64,000 nucleotides of DNA from an uncultured Planctomycetales bacterium (GTDB lineage: Bacteria; Omnitrophota; Gorgyraeia; Zapsychrales; Zapsychraceae): positions 911 through 64,910 of the forward strand of contig CAZVZR010000006.1 in assembly GCA_964630825.1 (NCBI GenBank), in the 5' to 3' direction. Positions 11,279 to 42,934 of this stretch are shown one piece after another. Positions within the stretch are counted from its first letter, which is position 1. Every line of letters starts with the position of its first letter. The notes beneath the pieces are model-generated. The model searched no databases and was not told the origin of the DNA. It worked only from the letters and a program-made list of their open reading frames with translations. A program made the translations under genes and the position numbers.

Positions 11279-11288
11279 TTTAACTTTT

Positions 11289-11333
11289 AAAAGTGCTGGT
11301 ATTTCGAGCAAAATTCGAGAAACCAGCACTTTT
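11289..11333. repeat. 12-bp perfect inverted repeat (possible terminator)
   Basis: AAAAGTGCTGGT (11289-11300) and ACCAGCACTTTT (11322-11333), 11 nt after the stop. The 21-nt loop contains a direct repeat TTCGAG…TTCGAG. No strong T-tract follows. Confidence 0.35.
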
Positions 11334-11427
11334 AAATGAAGCCTTAGGAAAAAGGACAGTGAATTTTCGAAGGTTTTGAGGAATCATATCAAAAACCGTT
11401 TTAACCAATACAAATAAGAGGAAAACC

Positions 11428-12048: not shown

Positions 12049-12918
12049 GTGAAAGTTTCTGCGCTTAAGAGTTTTGTTTGCCCAGTTGATGGACAGACAT
12101 TGCTTAAAGAAAATAAAATCTTTCGGTGTGGCAAGGGACATGTTTTTGATGTGGCCCGTGAGGGGTATTGCAATTTTCTCTTGGTACAGCAAAAGGCTTC
12201 ACTTGATCCGGGAGATAGCAAAGAAATGGTCGCTGCCCGGCGGCGGTTTCTCAATGAAGGGCATTTTGCCCAGCTTGCGGAGCATTTGTTTGAGCATGTT
12301 TGTAAAGTGATAAAGAAGCTGAATCACAGTATGCCGTTGCGGATTGTGGATGCCGGCTGCGGAGAAGGGTATTATTTGCATCAATTGAGTAAACTTGCCG
12401 CTGCAAACAAGCAAACAGCAAGCCTTGAACTCGCCGGATGTGATATTTCAAAGTGGGCGGTAAAAGCTGCGGCGAAACGATCGAAAGAAATTGCCTGGGT
12501 GGTGGCGGGAAATCGCCGATTACCGTTTGCGCCGGGCACAGTGGATTTAATTCTTTCTATTTTCGGTTTTCCGGATTGGGAAAATTTTAAAACGGTCCAG
12601 CCCAGCGGTGGCCGTGTGTTTTTGATTGATCCCGGGTCGGATCATTTGATCGAATTGCGGAAGATTATATACCCAGAGGTAAATTTGAGCCAGCTGCGTT
12701 CGCTTAAAACGGCAACGGAGGGTGGGTATATTTTGGAGTCGAACGACCAGCTTAAATATTCAGTGAGCCTTGAAAATAATTCGTCAATTCAGGATCTGCT
12801 GGCAATGACCCCGCACGCTTTCCGGATAACGCCAAAGGCACGGGAAGAAATTAGAACGTTAAAACGGTTGACCGTATCCGTGGATGTAAGGTTTCGAATT
12901 TTATGCCGAGGGCTTTAG
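12049..12918 (+). CDS. rlmA: 23S rRNA (guanine745-N1)-methyltransferase
   Basis: Strong SD GGGAGGGGGAG followed by a GTG start. N-terminal Zn-binding FVCPVDGQTL…FRCGKGHVFDVAREGYCNFL parallels E. coli RlmA (CPLC…CPQRHQFDMAKEGYVNLL). Also DAGCGEGYY, RLPF and DLIL motifs. Confidence 0.85.
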   Translation: MKVSALKSFVCPVDGQTLLKENKIFRCGKGHVFDVAREGYCNFLLVQQKASLDPGDSKEMVAARRRFLNEGHFAQLAEHLFEHVCKVIKKLNHSMPLRIVDAGCGEGYYLHQLSKLAAANKQTASLELAGCDISKWAVKAAAKRSKEIAWVVAGNRRLPFAPGTVDLILSIFGFPDWENFKTVQPSGGRVFLIDPGSDHLIELRKIIYPEVNLSQLRSLKTATEGGYILESNDQLKYSVSLENNSSIQDLLAMTPHAFRITPKAREEIRTLKRLTVSVDVRFRILCRGL

Positions 12919-25818: not shown

Positions 25819-25962
25819 TTCTAGCAATTTAACATTCTTCAATTATTTTGAAGAAACCAAGGGGGGTGTTGACGCATTCCGCGCTTGCATTTTGAAGTTT
25901 TTAGGCTAAAATAGCGTCGCTGTAAAAGTTTAGAAAATTACTCATTGGAAGGCGCGCGGATT

Positions 25963-27582
25963 ATGATTTCTGTTAACAATGTTTCTTTGCAATATGGCCA
26001 ACGTAAACTTTTTGCCGGGGTAAATATTGTTTTTACACCGGGCAATTGCTATGGGCTCATTGGGGCCAACGGCTCCGGCAAATCCACATTTCTAAAGATT
26101 CTTTCCGGTGAAGTCGAAACCACCACCGGCGAAGTTGCCATTCTCCCCGGGAAACGCCTTTCAGTATTAAGGCAAGATCAGTTTGCCTTTGATGAATATA
26201 CGGTTTTAACCACGGTTATCATGGGGCATAAACGGCTTTACAGTATTATGATGGAGAAAGAAGCGCTTTATGCCAAGGTAGATTTTTCCGACGCTGATGG
26301 AATGCTTATTGCTGATCTTGATCATGAGTTCAATGAACTCAACGGTTGGAATGCCGAATCCGATGCAGCTAAGCTCTTAAGTTATTTAGGCATTGAGGAA
26401 GAGTTATGTGCACTGCCGATGAAGCAGCTTGAGGCCGGACAAAAAGTGCGCGTGCTTTTAGCTCAGGCCTTGTTTGGGAATCCTGACATTTTACTTTTGG
26501 ACGAACCCACCAACCATCTGGACGTCGAAACTTGTCTATGGTTGGAAGAGTTTTTGTGTGAATTCCAAAATACCGCAATAGTGGTTTCCCATGACCGGCA
26601 TTTTTTAGACAAGGTTTGTACGCACATCGCGGATATTGATTTTGGCAAAATTCAACTGTATTCCGGTAATTATACTTTTTGGCAGGAATCCAGCCAATTG
26701 GCATTGCGCCAGCAAAGTGAATCGAATAAAAAAATTGAGGAAAGAAGAAAAGAGTTGCAGGATTTTATCGCGCGCTTTAGCGCTAATGCTTCCAAATCAC
26801 GGCAGGCGACCAGCCGCAAAAAGACTTTAGAGAAACTTACATTGGAAGAAATCCGCCCTTCATCGAGGAAGTATCCGTTCGTCGGTTTTGAGCAGGAGCG
26901 CGAGGCCGGCAACGAGCTTTTGAATATCACGGGCTTGTCCAAATCGAAAGATGGGCAGGACATGTTTAAGAATCTTAACATCACTATTGAAAAAGGGGAT
27001 AAGGTTGCGTTTGTGGGCGCCAATGATTTGGTTAAGACTACGCTTTTTCAGGTGTTGATGGGAGAGCTCACGGCTGATAGCGGGAGTTTTAAGTGGGGAT
27101 TTTCAACCCGCCGGGCGTATTTACCGAAGGACAACGTTAAATATTTTGATAATGAACTAAATATTATCGATTGGCTTCGTCAGTTCTCGCAGAACACGGA
27201 TGAAAATTTTGTGCGCGGATTTTTAGGCCGCATGCTTTTTTCCGGCGAAGAAGCGTTTAAGCCAGTGAAAGTTTTATCCGGAGGGGAAAAGGTAAGATGC
27301 ATGCTGTCGCGGATGATGCTCATGCAGGCGAATGTGCTAATTTTAGATGAGCCGACGAACCATTTGGATTTGGAATCCATCACGGCATTAAACCGCGGCC
27401 TGGAAAAATTTCGTGGGACTATTCTCTTAGCATCTCATGACCATCAGTTGGTTCAAACAACGGCTAACCGGATCATTAAGATTACGCCTCAAGGCTGCAT
27501 CGACCGCGTCGGCACAACATTTGATGAATACCTCGCGGATGAGAAAAATAAAAGCGGGCATGACAATTTTATTAATAAGTGA
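25963..27582 (+). CDS. ybiT: ABC-F family ATPase YbiT-type (two fused ABC domains, no TM)
   Basis: Near-collinear with E. coli YbiT (MISVNNVSLQYGQRKLF…GANGSGKSTFLKIL…; LSGGEK signatures; second domain GANDLVKTTLF). The ATG at 25963 is preferred over the TTG at 25945. Confidence 0.9.
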   Translation: MISVNNVSLQYGQRKLFAGVNIVFTPGNCYGLIGANGSGKSTFLKILSGEVETTTGEVAILPGKRLSVLRQDQFAFDEYTVLTTVIMGHKRLYSIMMEKEALYAKVDFSDADGMLIADLDHEFNELNGWNAESDAAKLLSYLGIEEELCALPMKQLEAGQKVRVLLAQALFGNPDILLLDEPTNHLDVETCLWLEEFLCEFQNTAIVVSHDRHFLDKVCTHIADIDFGKIQLYSGNYTFWQESSQLALRQQSESNKKIEERRKELQDFIARFSANASKSRQATSRKKTLEKLTLEEIRPSSRKYPFVGFEQEREAGNELLNITGLSKSKDGQDMFKNLNITIEKGDKVAFVGANDLVKTTLFQVLMGELTADSGSFKWGFSTRRAYLPKDNVKYFDNELNIIDWLRQFSQNTDENFVRGFLGRMLFSGEEAFKPVKVLSGGEKVRCMLSRMMLMQANVLILDEPTNHLDLESITALNRGLEKFRGTILLASHDHQLVQTTANRIIKITPQGCIDRVGTTFDEYLADEKNKSGHDNFINK

Positions 27583-27620
27583 TATTCTAATTATCCATTA
27601 GGGGAAGGAAGCCAAGTAAG

Positions 27621-28001
27621 ATGAGCGAACAGTTTAGTCAAAATCCTTCTGCTTTTTCCAGCCAAGCCAATACGGATGTGGTTGCTTTGATTAAGAAGAT
27701 GCAACAGCAACTGGATTCATTGGAAAGAAAAATTGATACCTTGGTTAGGCAGCAGTCTCAAGAAAGACCTTTTCGGGAAAAACGTTTTTCAAAACCGTTT
27801 AGGCCTTTTGGTAATTCTCAGCACCATGGCAAAAGAGAACATGATCACAGCCCCAGAGAGAGGGGCTTTGAGCAAGGGCAAAATTCTTCCCGTCCAAGTA
27901 ATTTTTCATCACGGGATGGAGAAAGGCGCCAGGGCAACCAGCATCGTGGGTATGGCCCAAAAAAGAAGTCTTTTTATCATAATCGAAAAGACCGGGGGTA
28001 G
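27621..28001 (+). CDS. Arg/Gly/Gln-rich intrinsically disordered protein with N-terminal coiled coil (RGG-like, possibly RNA-binding)
   Basis: VVALIKKMQQQLDSLERKIDTLVRQQ is followed by RGF/RQG/RER-rich low complexity. SD GGGGAAGGAAG upstream. Confidence 0.45.
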   Translation: MSEQFSQNPSAFSSQANTDVVALIKKMQQQLDSLERKIDTLVRQQSQERPFREKRFSKPFRPFGNSQHHGKREHDHSPRERGFEQGQNSSRPSNFSSRDGERRQGNQHRGYGPKKKSFYHNRKDRG

Positions 28002-28090
28002 GCAAATTAATTGCCTGGCTCGAACGTATAACTAACGCAGTACTAACAAACCGATACCTTCAAATAAGGTATCACTAAAATGGAGAGAAC

Positions 28091-28252
28091 ATGGCTTATC
28101 AAGGTGGTGGGTATGACAGAGGTCCAAGAGAGATGCACAAAGCTGTCTGTGCAGATTGCAAGAAAGAATGCGAAGTTCCTTTTAAACCTAGAGGCGACCG
28201 TCCAGTTTATTGCCGCGATTGTTTTTCAAAACATAAAGATGGCGGCCGTTAA
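28091..28252 (+). CDS. 53-aa CxxC-x17-CxxC zinc-ribbon protein, absent from the ORF track because it is under 60 aa
   Basis: MAYQGGGYDRGPREMHKAVCADCKKECEVPFKPRGDRPVYCRDCFSKHKDGGR*. A strong terminator follows immediately. The overlapping track ORF 28080..28271 is in another frame and lacks this motif. Confidence 0.5.
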   Translation: MAYQGGGYDRGPREMHKAVCADCKKECEVPFKPRGDRPVYCRDCFSKHKDGGR

Positions 28253-28286
28253 AACGGCACTATTTTTTTAAAGGACAATGGCCTGA

Positions 28287-28334
28287 CAACAAACCTCTTG
28301 CATCTAATATGTTGCAAGAGGTTTGTTGTTTTAC
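28287..28334 (+). terminator. strong rho-independent terminator
   Basis: 16-bp perfect stem CAACAAACCTCTTGCA/TGCAAGAGGTTTGTTG with a 10-nt loop, followed by TTTTAC. Confidence 0.75.
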
Positions 28335-28341
28335 AAAGACT

Positions 28342-29313
28342 ATGCCTATAACCTCCCATTCCCCCGCAGAAATTACCCTTCAATTGAAACGCGCGTTTAG
28401 TTATCGAGAGTCCTTGGGATTAAATACTAACGCGATGCGTTTGGTCAACAGCAAAGGTGACGGCCTTGAAGGGCTTATCATTGACCGCTTCAACAAGCAT
28501 TTTGTCGTTTATGTTTTAGATACACGTTGGCATCCGCATCAAAAGACGATCAACGATGTTTTGTGCGAACATTTTGAAGTTGCCTATCTGGTATTCAAGG
28601 ATCGTACCGTATCCGACACCCGCAGTGCATCCCATATTGCAGTTGACGTTCTGGTTGGCCAGGAAAATTCCCAAACAATCGTCGAGGAAAACGGTTTGCT
28701 TTTTCACGTGGATCTCAACGACAATCTTAATCAGGGATTGTTTTTGGACATGCGTAAGAACCGGAAGATTGTGGCTTCTTATGTTGCGGGCCGGGCGGTT
28801 TTAAACTGTTTTGCTTACACTTGTTCTTTTGGGGCATATTGCCGGAAATTCGGCGCTGCCCGGGTGACCAACGTGGATATCAGTAAAAAATTTTTGCAAG
28901 TAGGAAAAAAGAATTACCGCTTAAATCGTCTGCATGAGGGCCGCAGCGAATTTGTCCAAGATCACGCTGTTCGTTATCTGGAACGGGTGGCCAAGCGCAA
29001 CAACCTTTTTGATCTTATCATTCTCGACCCGCCATCGTTTTCGCGGTTTGAGGGGACTGTTTTTAGTGTCAAGAAAGACATGCCATTATTGATTGAAAAG
29101 GCGTTGCGCGCGTTGACCCCTGAAGGCATGCTTTTCGTTTCAACGAATTTAAGTTCAATCCTCCATCCGCAGCTGGAAACGTGGGCGCATTCTGCGGCCA
29201 AGAAAACCGGACGCAAGATCAGGGAAGTAATGCGCCTGGGCCAGGATGTCGAATTCCGCAAGAACGGTTTGATGAAAGAAAGTTTCTTGTCTGCTTTGCT
29301 GGTGAAATTATGA
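28342..29313 (+). CDS. class I SAM-dependent rRNA methyltransferase, RlmI/YccW-like but lacking the N-terminal PUA domain
   Basis: GLEGLIIDRFNKHFVVYVL aligns with RlmI (GLPGITIDRF). Also LNCFAYTCSFG and ILDPPSFS (DPPxF). The track start 28309 lies inside the upstream terminator, so the first ATG at 28342 is used. Confidence 0.75.
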   Translation: MPITSHSPAEITLQLKRAFSYRESLGLNTNAMRLVNSKGDGLEGLIIDRFNKHFVVYVLDTRWHPHQKTINDVLCEHFEVAYLVFKDRTVSDTRSASHIAVDVLVGQENSQTIVEENGLLFHVDLNDNLNQGLFLDMRKNRKIVASYVAGRAVLNCFAYTCSFGAYCRKFGAARVTNVDISKKFLQVGKKNYRLNRLHEGRSEFVQDHAVRYLERVAKRNNLFDLIILDPPSFSRFEGTVFSVKKDMPLLIEKALRALTPEGMLFVSTNLSSILHPQLETWAHSAAKKTGRKIREVMRLGQDVEFRKNGLMKESFLSALLVKL

Positions 29314-30854
29314 GTGTAAAGAAAGCATTTATAGGTGAGAATTTTTTAATGGTTTTTCTTTTATTCGTCTTAAGTTTTCTTTTGCGTTTCTTTCTTATCA
29401 GCAAGGGACCTTATGATGCAGACTGCCTTTCCTTGGCATTGTTAGTGCAAAAAGTTGAACAAACTCATCAGCTTCAGTATTTTTTCGGTTCGGGTTATCC
29501 TTTGACGGTATTTTGGGGGGCTGTCTTTGTCCATTTTTTGAAGTGGTTTGGGATGGCTGATCCTGTTTATGCGGTTAATCTGATGAGTGTTGTCTTTTCG
29601 TCTTTGGCTGTAGCTGTCTTTTATAGTATTGGCTTGAGGTTTTTAGGGCCGTTGGGCGCGATTTTATCCTCTGTTTTGTTTTCGGTTAACCCGCTTTTCT
29701 TAGGTGTTTCCGTCTATGGCTCGAGTCAGCCTCTAGCCATATTTTTTTTATTAAGCAGTATTCTTTTTTTATTAAAATTCCTTGAGCGAGAAGACCGCCT
29801 GTTTCTTTTTTTAAGTGGGATATTTTTAGGGTTAACCGGTGCCAGCCGTCTTCAGGAGATGTTCCTTATACTTGGGCCGTTGGTTTTTCTGTTTTTGGCC
29901 AATAAAAATATAAAACCCGCGCAGAGTAGCCACATTTTAAAATTCTTCCTTATAGCCTTTCTCACCGCAGGAGTTTTTTATCTTCCATTTCTCTTAGGAG
30001 CGCAAAAATTTGATTATCTAAAGCAATTGGCTTTTTACCGCCAACTTTCTGTGGCTAAAGAATTTCAGATAGATGCCTTTAAAGCGGTAGGGGAATTTCT
30101 TTTTGCGGCCTTATTGCCGGTGGGGATAGCTTTGTCTTTATGCGGTATGTGGTATTTGTTTAAAGAGAAAAGGCCTCTTTTTATATTTTTTATTTTATGG
30201 GTTATTTTGCCGTGGGCCCTTTATTCTTTTCTTTATACAATCACGGCACGGTTCATTGTCTTTATGTTGCCGGTATGTTTTTGGGCTCAGGGGTTTGTAT
30301 TTGTTAAGTTTTTCAATTTCAATAAATGGTCACGCACGATATCACTTGTAATATTCGTAACAATGTTTTTTATTATGTTTAATACGATCTATCCTCTTTT
30401 GTCATTGCGCCATGAACGTGCTTTTACTCCCGAATATGCCGAATGGGTAAAAGAAAAGATACCTGTTGGGAGTGCCATTATAGTAACCGACGACCGGTTA
30501 TTTTTTGAATATTATGGCCAGAACAAAATCCTTGGCCGGCCTTTAAAATATTTTGATTATGAAGAGGGTGACCTTTTAGATTTTCAAAAGAAATTAGATA
30601 GATTGTTAGATTCCAATATTTCGGTTTATATAACGTATGTGGGGCTTTTTGATTATGACCCTAAGGAAAGGTTTTCACAATTTATGAAGGCCCACTATAT
30701 TTTAAAAGAAGTGGGGGTAAATCTCTACGAGGATTGGCATCAGGGGGCGATGGTCAAACGTATTTTCTACAATCCCTTGGTTAAAATTGAAAAACGTTCT
30801 AGAGAGGATGAATGGCAAAGATTGTTAAAGAAATTTTTGAATGTGTACAAATAA
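29310..30854 (+). CDS. polytopic membrane protein, GT-C-fold glycosyltransferase-like (ArnT/PMT_2-like)
   Basis: At least 10 TM helices with a first-loop DAD motif (GPYDADCL), then a ~150-aa C-terminal soluble domain. The ATG at 29310 overlaps the RlmI-like stop; the track's upstream extension overlaps the previous gene. Confidence 0.45.
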   Translation: MSVKKAFIGENFLMVFLLFVLSFLLRFFLISKGPYDADCLSLALLVQKVEQTHQLQYFFGSGYPLTVFWGAVFVHFLKWFGMADPVYAVNLMSVVFSSLAVAVFYSIGLRFLGPLGAILSSVLFSVNPLFLGVSVYGSSQPLAIFFLLSSILFLLKFLEREDRLFLFLSGIFLGLTGASRLQEMFLILGPLVFLFLANKNIKPAQSSHILKFFLIAFLTAGVFYLPFLLGAQKFDYLKQLAFYRQLSVAKEFQIDAFKAVGEFLFAALLPVGIALSLCGMWYLFKEKRPLFIFFILWVILPWALYSFLYTITARFIVFMLPVCFWAQGFVFVKFFNFNKWSRTISLVIFVTMFFIMFNTIYPLLSLRHERAFTPEYAEWVKEKIPVGSAIIVTDDRLFFEYYGQNKILGRPLKYFDYEEGDLLDFQKKLDRLLDSNISVYITYVGLFDYDPKERFSQFMKAHYILKEVGVNLYEDWHQGAMVKRIFYNPLVKIEKRSREDEWQRLLKKFLNVYK

Positions 30855-30857
30855 TTT

Positions 30858-32759
30858 ATGGCACTGATTAGCTTACAGGAAATTTCGCTTGCCTTCGGCG
30901 GGCCGTTAATTTTTGACCAATTAAGTTTGCAATTGGAAGAAGGCGAACGCGTGGCGCTTTTGGGGCGTAACGGCGAAGGCAAGACTACGCTCATGAAGGT
31001 GATTGCCGGTCATCTGGGCGTCGATGAGGGCAAAATTATCCGCCAGCAAGGCATTGAAATTACCCATCTGCCGCAGGAAGTTCCTTCGGATATACAGGGA
31101 AATCTTTTTGATATTGTCGCCTCCGGGTTAGGCAAGCGAGGAGAACTTCTTAAAGAATACCATCATGTTAGCCATCGCTTGCAGACTGAGCACACACCGG
31201 AACTGATGCGCCAGCTGGACCGCGTGCAGGCGGAATTAGACCGCACGAAAAGTTGGGATACGAATAGTCAAGTTGAGTATGTCCTTTCGCAGATGAAACT
31301 GGATCCAGAAGCGGATTTTGCCGCATTATCCGGCGGGCAGAAACGACGGGTGCTTTTAGCGCGGGCGCTGGTGATTCATCCGGACATTCTTCTTCTGGAT
31401 GAGCCCACTAATCACTTGGATATTGATTCGATTGATTGGTTGGAAGGTTTTTTAAAAAGTTATTCCGGCACACTTTTATTTGTCACGCACGACCGTGTGT
31501 TTATGCGGCATTTGGCAACACGGATTGTCGAGATTGATCGCGGCAAGATTTTTAGTTGGCGCTGTGACTATGAAACATTTTTACAGCGTAAACAAATGGC
31601 CTTAGATAATGAAGAAGTGCAACGGCACGAATTTAAAAAAAGGTTGGCGGAAGAAGAGGTTTGGATCCGCCAGGGGGTTAAGGCCCGCCGGGTCAGAAAC
31701 GAAGGGCGCGTCAAGGCACTGGAACGGATGCGGGAAGCGAAAAAAGCGCAGCGCGAGGTTACGGGAAAAGTGAATATGCGGTTGCAGGAAGCGGATATTT
31801 CCGGGCATTTGGTGATTAAGGCTGCCAATTTGGGTTATTGGTACGGCGATAAATGTTTAATTAAAAATTTCTCCGTCAACATCATGCGTGGGGATAAAAT
31901 CGGTGTGATTGGGCCCAACGGTTCCGGGAAGACAACCCTTTTGCGTTTGCTGTTTGGGAAAATGGCTCCGCTGCAGGGCAAGTCGAGGCTGGGGACAAAT
32001 CTTGAAGTAGCATATTATGACCAATTACGTGAACAGCTGGATGAAGAAAAGACCGTTATTGAAAATATCTGCGGTACGAGCGATACGATTACTATTAACG
32101 GCAAGCCACGGCATATCTATGGGTATATGCAGGATTTTCTTTTTACTCCGGACCGCGCGCGCACGCCAGTCAAGGTTCTCTCCGGCGGGGAACGTAACCG
32201 TCTTTTATTAGCCAGATTATTTATTAAGCCGTCTAATGTTTTAGTCATGGATGAGCCGACGAATGATTTGGATATCGAAACACTGGAGCTTTTGGAAGAA
32301 TTGCTTCTTGATTATTCGGGTACGCTCATTTTAGTCAGCCATGACCGCGCGTTTTTAAATAATATTGTTACCAGCACGATTGTACTCGAGGGCGAAGGCG
32401 TGGTTAACGAATATGCCGGCGGCTACGATGATTGGTTGAGCCAACATCAGGCACAGCAAGGATTGAAGAAAGAAATTTCCCGGGAAAATGCGGGTGAAGA
32501 AACGGGGGAAAAAGGAAAACCGAAGCCGCGCAAACTTTCTTTTAAGGAAGAAAAGGAGCTTGCCGCCCTTTGCGTAAAAATTGAAAAGCTTGAGGAGCAG
32601 CGGGAAGAACTTTATACGCTTATGGCCGACCCGGCACTCTTTAAAAAAGATCCGCAGGAAATTGTTCAAGCAAGAAGCAAGCTGGAAGAGATTGAAGATG
32701 AATTGCTGAAGAATTTTGAGCGCTGGGAATTCCTGGAAGATTTACGCCGGAAGGATTGA
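30858..32759 (+). CDS. uup: ABC-F family ATPase Uup-type with C-terminal coiled-coil domain
   Basis: 633 aa. Two ABC cassettes (GRNGEGKTTL, GPNGSGKTTL; LSGGQKRR, LSGGERNR). C-terminal K/E-rich coiled coil as in E. coli Uup. Confidence 0.85.
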   Translation: MALISLQEISLAFGGPLIFDQLSLQLEEGERVALLGRNGEGKTTLMKVIAGHLGVDEGKIIRQQGIEITHLPQEVPSDIQGNLFDIVASGLGKRGELLKEYHHVSHRLQTEHTPELMRQLDRVQAELDRTKSWDTNSQVEYVLSQMKLDPEADFAALSGGQKRRVLLARALVIHPDILLLDEPTNHLDIDSIDWLEGFLKSYSGTLLFVTHDRVFMRHLATRIVEIDRGKIFSWRCDYETFLQRKQMALDNEEVQRHEFKKRLAEEEVWIRQGVKARRVRNEGRVKALERMREAKKAQREVTGKVNMRLQEADISGHLVIKAANLGYWYGDKCLIKNFSVNIMRGDKIGVIGPNGSGKTTLLRLLFGKMAPLQGKSRLGTNLEVAYYDQLREQLDEEKTVIENICGTSDTITINGKPRHIYGYMQDFLFTPDRARTPVKVLSGGERNRLLLARLFIKPSNVLVMDEPTNDLDIETLELLEELLLDYSGTLILVSHDRAFLNNIVTSTIVLEGEGVVNEYAGGYDDWLSQHQAQQGLKKEISRENAGEETGEKGKPKPRKLSFKEEKELAALCVKIEKLEEQREELYTLMADPALFKKDPQEIVQARSKLEEIEDELLKNFERWEFLEDLRRKD

Positions 32760-42712: not shown

Positions 42713-42934
42713 ATGTCAAAAGAAGAAGCAATTGAAGTGGAAGGCGTTGTTAAGAAAGCATTATCGAATGCCAAATTTTCTGTCGAGATAGAAAATGGCC
42801 ATACGGTTATCGCTTATCCAGCCGGAAAAATGAGAAAATTCTTTATTAAAATTTTGCCCGGGGACAAAGTGACGGTGGCTTTGTCACCGTACGATTTGGG
42901 CAAAGGCAGAATTACCTTTAGGCATAAAATATAA
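42713..42934 (+). CDS. infA: translation initiation factor IF-1
   Basis: 73 aa. [64 protein letters not shown] matches IF-1 along its full length. Confidence 0.9.

Follow-up and report, generated by a model that had tools for sequence, protein, structure and literature searches.

The locus described here raises the question of whether two short open reading frames (ORFs), lodged between a gene for an ABC-F ATPase (25945..27582) and a gene for a methyltransferase, are genuine genes, whether they belong together, and what they might do. Both lie in a 64,000-nucleotide stretch of DNA (hereafter the window; 43% G+C) from an uncultured bacterium registered as Planctomycetales and placed by GTDB in the Omnitrophota (GenBank assembly GCA_964630825.1, contig CAZVZR010000006.1, positions 911 to 64,910 of the forward strand). 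They are encoded on the same strand and are referred to as gene A (126 amino acids) and gene Z (53 amino acids; Table 1). A preliminary description of the window had presented A as an RGG-type disordered protein and Z as an unannotated zinc ribbon, the two forming a helicase tail split into free-standing genes amid ribosome-associated factors. Comparative analysis established that A and Z are a genuine conserved pair, present in other genomes both as separate genes and as fusions. That Z is a zinc-finger adaptor associated with RNA or the ribosome, and A its multimerising basic partner, is a reading to which we give an even chance.

Comparison with profile hidden Markov models (HMMs) placed Z in a known family. 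Z scored 72.2 bits against TIGR04272 (cutoff 36) and 73.4 bits against PF23477 (cutoff 27), the NCBIfam model 'cxxc_cxxc_Mbark' and the Pfam model zf_Tbcl_2 ('probable treble clef zinc finger'), respectively, and its residues 13-49 align to the whole profile (positions 1-37 of 37). Judged from its sequence, Z is a clear member of this named family of unknown function, and the notion of Z as a new kind of element was abandoned, since both families are curated. A word-indexed search returned 1265 clusters of Z homologues and an exhaustive HMMER search 5400 clusters at 50% identity, spread over uncultured bacteria and archaea (Patescibacteria, Omnitrophota, Acidobacteriota, DPANN, Methanosarcina). 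The closest homologues are free-standing proteins of 52-57 amino acids with 75-92% identity from metagenome-assembled genomes (MAGs) of Acidobacteriota, Omnitrophota and Nanoarchaeota. Few and weak matches were found in phage and plasmid collections, and an origin from mobile elements is not indicated. A search of the accessible literature yielded no paper on the function of TIGR04272/PF23477, on the A family, or on a link of either with ABC-F proteins or helicases.

Conservation at the nucleotide level is consistent with a translated gene. Compared with four orthologues of equal length, Z showed a DNA identity of 76-80%, with 23-26 of 32-39 differences at codon position 3; of the differing codons, 18-20 were synonymous and 7-11 non-synonymous. 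A purine-rich motif of Shine-Dalgarno type (mostly GGAGG/AGGAG) precedes the M(A/G)(F/Y)Q start in all 38 orthologues encoded as separate genes. The claim that the 53-codon ORF is real and conserved is thus borne out by family scores, homologue counts, codon-position bias and Shine-Dalgarno sites, and sequence comparison identifies Z as a real gene under purifying selection. As had also been stated, Z is hidden from a list of ORFs of at least 60 amino acids, where a different-frame ORF of 63 amino acids (28080..28271) appears in its place. The description of Z as unannotated holds in part. It is plausible that Z is unannotated in its source, because the exact 53-residue product is absent from the called genes on record whereas A is present; several orthologues, however, have already been named by NCBI or JGI.

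The putative zinc-binding core of Z is the sole C..C-x15-19-C..C match in a six-frame translation of the window. Across 46 family sequences, C20, C23, V29, P30, F31, P33 and C41 are invariant and C44 is nearly so, and Z carries the family signature of two CxxC pairs 17 residues apart together with VPFxP...P(V/I)YC. By sequence and by analogy, Z is predicted to bind one zinc ion through four cysteines; in Methanosarcina mazei, zinc was found bound by two Z-family members using inductively coupled plasma mass spectrometry (PMC12704099). In the searchable literature, experiments on the family are confined to this archaeon. An AlphaFold2 (AF2) model of Z (mean predicted local distance difference test, pLDDT, 73) comprises strands at residues 16-20 and 26-29, which form a beta-hairpin (16-29) bearing the first CxxC, and a helix at residues 42-52. 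The Z domain of a natural fusion with A (P0182) was modelled with pLDDT 91-95. The predicted topology is a treble clef and not the classical zinc ribbon named in the preliminary description, as the second CxxC (C41, C44) starts an alpha-helix in the model and Zinc_ribbon_6 scored 17.6 bits, under its cutoff of 27. The placement of the predicted knuckle in a beta-hairpin and of the second CxxC at the helix start is shared with the treble clefs of LIM, PHD and FYVE domains, and the C-terminal half of LIM domains resembles Z weakly in sequence. Unlike these domains, Z has a single predicted zinc site, four ligand cysteines and conserved surface motifs of its own. There is no evidence of common descent, because the matches are non-significant (E ≥ 0.07 for sequence, E ≥ 0.33 for fold).

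A fifth cysteine, C27 (in ECEVPF; nt 28169-28171), is nearly invariant in the Z family although four suffice for zinc. It may be linked to the oxidised 'dehydro-cysteine' forms of M. mazei family members that were seen by top-down proteomics (PMC12704099). Zinc binding, these oxidised forms and the extra cysteine are what would be expected if Z served as a zinc or redox buffer. The surface outside the ligands (REMHKA, EVPFKP, RPVYC) is nonetheless retained, with 75-92% identity between phyla, which points to a specific macromolecular partner and not to mere metal storage, and clustering of the genes neighbouring A detected no recurrent zinc-uptake or regulator genes. Buffering is accordingly regarded as very improbable.

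Gene A belongs to a second family. Its homologues formed 67 clusters (E ≤ 1e-3), among them an exact copy on record (P0121). None of the 67 contained a Pfam domain and all were 'hypothetical' where named; the family is unnamed and without a Pfam or NCBIfam model. Three parts of the protein are conserved, namely a DVVALIKKMQQQLxxLE(K/R)KIDxLI helix, the FSKPF(R)PF motif and a C-terminal (R)GFxxKKKPFxxKRKxR, with a variable stretch rich in R, G, E, S and H between them, and all three are present in the A protein of the window. Within the helix, Q28, Q30, L31, L34, E35, K37, I38, D39 and L41 are invariant among 17 family members, and A holds the sole LxxLExKID helix motif of the window. In the AF2 model of fusion P0182 the equivalent helix (residues 18-43) has pLDDT 96-97, and everything outside this helix and the zinc domain is disordered. 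A has an isoelectric point of 10.74 (tail 11.3) and is rich in R, K, G, Q, S and H. The label 'RGG-type' was too specific for this protein, because it has no RGG and only three isolated RG dipeptides.

The relationship of A to Z was evaluated in a scan with the A alignment in which each GTDB species was represented by a single genome; it gave 105 confirmed matches, of which 80 loci were kept. Most of these loci are from Omnitrophota, and a smaller share derives from MAGs bearing the labels Planctomycetes, Acidobacteriota, delta-proteobacteria or Gemmatimonadota. In 59 of the 80 species-level loci, the A helix is followed at no more than 1.2 kb by a Z motif of the same strand. At the level of ORFs, Z is a separate gene in 35-38 of the 80, with A-Z gaps of 25-410 nt, and is embedded in the A protein in 22. 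The suggestion that A and Z form a pair is therefore upheld. Natural fusions (P0182, L102, L096) are arranged as helix, FSKPF, linker, Z and A's own C-terminal tail, and some loci contain a fused A+Z followed by a further free Z. The linker of A carries an (S/G)PRE motif where the N-terminal flank of Z (GPREMHKA) sits in the fusions. Judged from this order, the split A and Z of the window represent a distinct architecture. They do not result from a stop codon interrupting a fused gene, because the fusions place Z within the A linker, before A's tail; for the same reason the architectures do not suggest a single tail split into two free-standing genes, A retaining a tail of its own.

In eleven Omnitrophota loci (L015, L019-L022, L024, L025, L027, L030, L037 and L046), a protein of ~200 amino acids is encoded directly upstream of A on the same strand (e.g. 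L024:5286-5885). Members of this subclade may thereby have a module of three components. A CarD-like identity, suggested by an N-terminus that by eye resembles CarD/TRCF-RID, was dropped, as no Pfam match was obtained at E ≤ 0.01.

Outside the A-Z pair, Z domains occur in several other architectures. The top representatives of the exhaustive Z search are proteins of 100-340 amino acids with 2-5 Z domains joined by R/G-rich linkers, and the named multi-Z members are from Patescibacteria/Paceibacterota. In 100 of 145 top representatives, a helix F(E/D)xLNxKLDKILKxL follows 40-50 residues past the last zinc domain, usually with a K/A-rich tail behind it, and in those 100 Patescibacteria-type homologues the LxxLxxK(I/L)DxI pattern of the A helix recurs. 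The two- and three-copy Patescibacteria proteins (~200-330 amino acids; P0203, P0214, MFA5076675.1) are thus similar to A-Z in having zinc domains with R/G-rich flanks, an amphipathic helix and a basic disordered tail. They differ in being a single polypeptide of the order Zn-Zn-helix-tail and in having a tail rich in K and A, not in R, G, Q and S. Homology of the two helices was considered and kept as a resemblance only (hhalign E = 0.0026, probability 11.6%, 20 columns). On sequence, the combination of zinc domain, short amphipathic helix and basic tail appears to be a recurring association, its homology being unproven.

Z domains are also attached to helicases, as the preliminary description had stated. 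Complete 419-residue proteins with DEAD, Helicase_C and zf_Tbcl_2 domains are encoded in L129 and L134, where a free-standing Z gene immediately precedes each of them. When a synthetic query of helicase motifs V-VI joined to Z was used, the top matches were helicase C-terminal fragments with Helicase_C and PF23477 (P0335, P0336). Bacterial DEAD-box helicases carry C-terminal extensions such as the RNA-binding domains of DbpA/YxiN and the basic tails of CsdA/RhlE, and in these four proteins the Z domain holds exactly that place. The accompanying claim that A is akin to helicase tails found no support in homology. Such fusions invite the question of whether A and Z are themselves what remains of a broken DEAD-box helicase gene, or ORFs that arose by chance. 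A tblastn search of the window with two DEAD-box helicases matched only the 36-residue Z part of the L129 helicase (at 28130-28237) and found no helicase core, the ABC-F gene upstream is unbroken and stops 38 nt short of A, and 35-38 other species retain the order of A and Z, together with purifying selection and Shine-Dalgarno sites. A and Z are not helicase fragments; the debris reading is refuted, and an origin of this kind, chance ORFs included, has a negligible probability.

Two further fusions were observed, namely an SSB-like OB fold with a C-terminal Z (194 amino acids, L163:883-1467) and an N-terminal Z followed by GrpE (265 amino acids, L123:4977-5774). Z-domain proteins were also observed in cultured gut Oscillospiraceae, where they lie on large secondary replicons and offer possible experimental systems. 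In the Firmicute Pusillibacter faecalis, a protein of 92 amino acids consists of a second CxxC...CxxC zinc module followed by Z (L182, NZ_AP023421.1:228305-228583), and the copy in Subdoligranulum variabile (L183, OY725846.1:276932-277060) is without an annotated feature in the feature table.

Ribosome-associated genes recur near Z or A-Z in Omnitrophota, Acidobacteriota and Patescibacteria, mostly as immediate neighbours and in varied orientation. Besides the A loci, the analysis covered 80 metagenome loci picked for similarity to Z. ABC-F genes were recounted using a two-domain criterion, because MacB-type transporters and ABC-F proteins had fallen together into the largest 'ABC' cluster; nine were present in 758 kb of A loci and two in 423 kb of Z loci, most of them within 1.3 kb of the anchor gene. 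One lies directly upstream of Z in L088, and ABC-F genes adjoin Patescibacteria homologues in L171-173 and L180; for the two- and three-copy Patescibacteria proteins, an adjacent ABC-F gene was seen in two of four loci examined. In the window, both the YbiT-like and the Uup-like gene are within 2.6 kb of the pair. An orthologue of the former with 80% identity is found 1.2 kb upstream of A in the Omnitrophota locus L070, and orthologues of the latter with 50-70% identity occur less than 3 kb from A-Z in L026, L016, L040, L064, L005 and L023, the closest (70%) being that of L026, also Omnitrophota. With the nearest relatives of both flanking genes in Omnitrophota, the window itself is probably from this phylum. 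DEAD-box genes numbered four in the A loci and five in the Z loci. BipA/TypA is encoded immediately upstream of fused A+Z (L125, L102), and its gene is also present in L012, L036, L051 and L171. A protein of ~136 amino acids with an RF-1 domain (GGQ, ArfB-like) lies beside A in L036 and L045, as confirmed with Pfam, and neighbours in L042 and L077 were grouped with RF-1-domain proteins by BLAST clustering. An RlmI-like PUA methyltransferase is encoded in eight A loci, and ribosomal protein L33 upstream in L171.

The neighbourhood of ribosome factors is thus not peculiar to the window, since ABC-F, DEAD-box, BipA and RF-1-domain genes recur across phyla. The two further genes named in the preliminary description are present: the rlmA-like gene (12049..12918; RlmA-like 23S rRNA G745 methyltransferase, 230 bits against a cutoff of 303) and infA (IF-1, at ~42713..42934) are 14-15 kb from A-Z with unrelated genes in between, and add little to the context. 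As a general expectation, each Mb should hold about one ABC-F and one DEAD-box gene, and each genome a single BipA gene. Set against this, the observed densities of 5-12 genes per Mb correspond to a ~4-10-fold enrichment. DEAD-box helicases act in assembly of the 50S subunit in the cold. For Uup and BipA, a genetic interaction in that process has been described (PMC6723617).

Taken as an RNA- or ribosome-associated adaptor and its partner, Z and A would be the products of a two-gene module that is probably transcribed as one unit, with the hairpins behind Z as its end. A would be mostly disordered, its sole folded element of ~26 residues being an amphipathic helix that probably serves self-association or partner binding. 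Z would be a small RNA-binding or ribosome-docking module, as at the C-terminus of some DEAD-box helicases, whereas the helix of A would confer multivalency and its basic tail a non-specific affinity for nucleic acids. The two proteins could together assist or tether remodelling factors (the ABC-F proteins Uup and YbiT, DEAD-box helicases, BipA), presumably in ribosome assembly or in the rescue of difficult translation. We infer the RNA or ribosome binding, the A-Z contact and the cooperation with neighbours from gene context and fusions. A further-reaching proposal, which we hold only tentatively, is that Z is a factor of the ribosome not recognised before, which could be a cofactor in assembly or rescue or else a ribosomal protein that is bound loosely. 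It would act with A in Omnitrophota and their relatives and with Uup/YbiT, BipA and DEAD-box proteins, and its docking module would have been captured by some helicases.

Several observations weigh against the adaptor-and-partner reading. About 21 of 81 A genes are without an adjacent Z, and an A-type partner was found in only about 6 of the 80 Z loci, about 74 being without A; because of these counts A is considered lineage-specific, an accessory of the far more widespread Z. The AF2 model of the fusion gave no confident contact between helix and zinc domain (predicted template modelling score 0.32). Unbiased clustering of neighbours at the A loci revealed no universally conserved neighbour and yielded signalling, radical-SAM, DeoC, NifU and permease genes as well, and most loci are without a translation-related neighbour. 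The enrichment of ABC-F and DEAD-box genes is a rough figure that assumes ~1 gene per Mb and is uncorrected for shared ancestry. Searches for relatives of Z in the PDB with the single sequence and with the 46-sequence profile found none, the LIM/CRP/paxillin-type matches being non-significant, and Foldseek returned nothing significant (best E = 0.33, to PHD/FYVE/LIM-type fingers). The searchable literature holds no experimental or structural evidence of RNA or ribosome binding by any family member. Finally, some contexts point elsewhere, namely the GrpE fusion (L123), the K/A-rich tails reminiscent of histone H1, and neighbouring GreA, sigma-factor and ruvCAB/yebC genes.

Several of these contexts would suit a DNA-binding, nucleoid-associated or transcription factor, in which the finger of Z, together with A, touches RNA polymerase or DNA and the basic tails coat DNA. 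A role in transcription was proposed by the M. mazei authors from TFIIB-like cysteine spacing alone, and one of the eight proteins of their study is annotated as an RNA polymerase subunit (PMC12704099); the similarity to TFIIB, however, is limited to that spacing. The K/A-rich tails of the Patescibacteria proteins, which match the histone H1-like HC2 weakly, the GreA neighbour in L171-173 and the SSB-like fusion (L163) are also in keeping with action on DNA. In P. faecalis the gene of the Z protein comes after one of the sigma-70 family, with ruvCAB and yebC close by, and in L082-L087 the genes for RNase H, YebC, RuvC and RuvA are downstream of Z. As general Z neighbours, however, YebC, RuvABC and RNase H had to be rejected, with no match in the 160 A and Z loci, and the DEAD-box RNA helicase fusions and the ABC-F, BipA and RF-1-domain neighbours favour RNA and the ribosome. 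Action on DNA or in transcription is therefore judged unlikely.

The GrpE fusion would also be explained if Z were an adaptor for proteins or chaperones, a view with which its closest (insignificant) resemblances to LIM, PHD, FYVE and RING fingers, mostly protein-binding, and its occurrence as an accessory on several unrelated partners are consistent. That single fusion is set against several to nucleic-acid modules, the structural resemblances are all non-significant, and the G/R-rich or K/A-rich flanks are typical of nucleic-acid binding. This explanation is considered improbable. The reading of Z as an RNA- or ribosome-associated adaptor with partner A is retained.

The features of the locus are collected in Table 1. 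Both flanking ABC-F genes encode two ABC domains and an ABC_tran_Xtn linker (2x ABC_tran + ABC_tran_Xtn in Pfam). The YbiT-like gene scored 663.9 bits against NF011646 (ABC-F family ATPase; equivalog cutoff 762). The Uup-like gene scored 822 against NF050005 (Uup; cutoff 900) and 421 against NF000355 (ABC-F), passing the latter cutoff of 380, and has an ABC_tran_CTD in addition. On these scores the two genes are probable, but not certain, exact orthologues of E. coli YbiT and Uup, because both fall just under the equivalog cutoffs. The match to a sigma-70-like promoter upstream of A agrees with the consensus at 9 of 12 positions, with TG before the second hexamer, and is a pattern match only. 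For the methyltransferase, the top NCBIfam matches were 23S rRNA C5/N7 methyltransferases, all far under their equivalog cutoffs; its substrate is uncertain because of these scores and because the PUA domain of RlmI is absent. Its start is likely the ATG at 28343 (MPITSHSPAEI...) rather than the listed ATG at 28309, because the latter falls inside the loop of the 17-bp hairpin. Between the methyltransferase gene and uup lies an ORF of 557 amino acids with a GTG start (29181-30854), which overlaps the methyltransferase 3' end by ~130 nt. From its sequence the product is hydrophobic and looks like a multi-pass membrane protein, and its true start is probably an internal MSVKK... near 29310.

Table 1. 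Coordinates of the A-Z pair, its sequence elements and the flanking genes in the window.
Feature	Position	Strand	Basis or remarks
ABC-F ATPase, YbiT-like	25945..27582	+	Intact; stop 38 nt 5' of gene A
Weak sigma-70-like promoter match, ATGACA-17-TATTCT	27560..27588	+	Consensus scan, upstream of gene A
Gene A, 126 aa, basic	27621..28001	+	N-terminal amphipathic helix, FSKPFRPF motif, disordered R/K/G/Q/S-rich tail ending GYGPKKKSFYHNRKDRG
Conserved A helix TDVVALIKKMQQQLDSLERKIDTLVRQQ, residues 18-45	27672..27755	+	Invariant columns; helix predicted in fusion homologue
8-bp hairpin GATACCTT/AAGGTATC	28053..28073	+	In the 89-nt A-Z gap, no T-run; doubtful significance
Shine-Dalgarno-like GGAGAG	28082..28087	+	Read from sequence, few bases 5' of the Z start codon
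Gene Z, 53 aa	28091..28252	+	TIGR04272/PF23477 match, orthologues, codon-position bias
Putative zinc-binding core CADCKKECEVPFKPRGDRPVYCRDC	28148..28222	+	CADC-x17-CRDC, Z residues 20-44
Small terminator-like hairpin, GCCGT-TAAA-ACGGC + T-run	28245..28270 (stem-loop 28245-28258)	+	Terminator scan; Z stop codon in loop
Hairpin, perfect 17-bp stem ACAACAAACCTCTTGCA / TGCAAGAGGTTTGTTGT, then TTTTAC	28286..28329	+	Probable main terminator of the A-Z unit
RlmI/RlmK-like class I S-adenosylmethionine-dependent methyltransferase without PUA domain	28343..29313	+	PF10672, 114 bits
ABC-F ATPase, Uup-like	30858..32759	+	NF050005, NF000355, ABC_tran_CTD

The strong hairpin reported after Z proved to be real, with a stem of 17 bp. 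Its arms (28286-28302 and 28313-28329, 17 nt each) are 100% complementary and form the longest perfect inverted repeat of the window, a longer imperfect one being present at 11286-11336. The region 28240-28345 folds with -38.5 kcal/mol (z = -5.95), and none of 200 shuffled sequences folded as well. This hairpin probably ends the A-Z unit; the consensus terminator scan passed over it because of the short T-run. In the smaller hairpin at the end of Z, the segment CGGCCGTTAAAACGG (28243-28258; the last Z codons and the bases past the stop) is nearly invariant, synonymous positions included, between the window and L016, L018, L026, L035, L056, L057 and L070. It may be a conserved terminator or a translation-termination element, or may merely reflect close relatedness. 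The hairpin between A and Z was rejected as a regulatory element, its fold being ordinary (z = -1.54) and its length and energy varying over 38 loci. No Rfam family matched anywhere in the 64-kb window.

In five or six Omnitrophota loci, Z is directly followed by ~100 nt of conserved noncoding sequence with the pattern GCGCAAGGAATAGACCGG..GCTAAGGGCAAGAAGAACAGGCG..GTTACGC...AATCAAACA (L016:4110-4215, L026:6873-6975, L035:6704-6806, L057:2111-2215, L059:971-1075 and partly L056:6694-6760). It had no match in Rfam, its support from covariation is weak, and it is not present in the window (0 matches allowing 3 mismatches).

What the analysis adds is the partner A, the forms in which A and Z are fused, and the recurrent neighbourhood of ABC-F, DEAD-box and BipA genes, none of which was found in the searchable literature, Z itself being like the rest of TIGR04272/PF23477. 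The locus also illustrates that genes of fewer than 60 codons slip through standard ORF filters and through at least one annotation of this contig. The Z family is huge (5400 clusters) and highly conserved, function and solved structure lacking, and its members in Methanosarcina are reportedly among the top-confidence detections of small proteins. The translation machinery of Patescibacteria and Omnitrophota is otherwise difficult to study. With a dedicated partner, fusions to DEAD-box helicases and, in three phyla or more, the company of Uup/YbiT, BipA and RF-1-domain proteins, the A-Z pair provides a testable hypothesis, namely that this family may take part in the remodelling of RNA or the ribosome.

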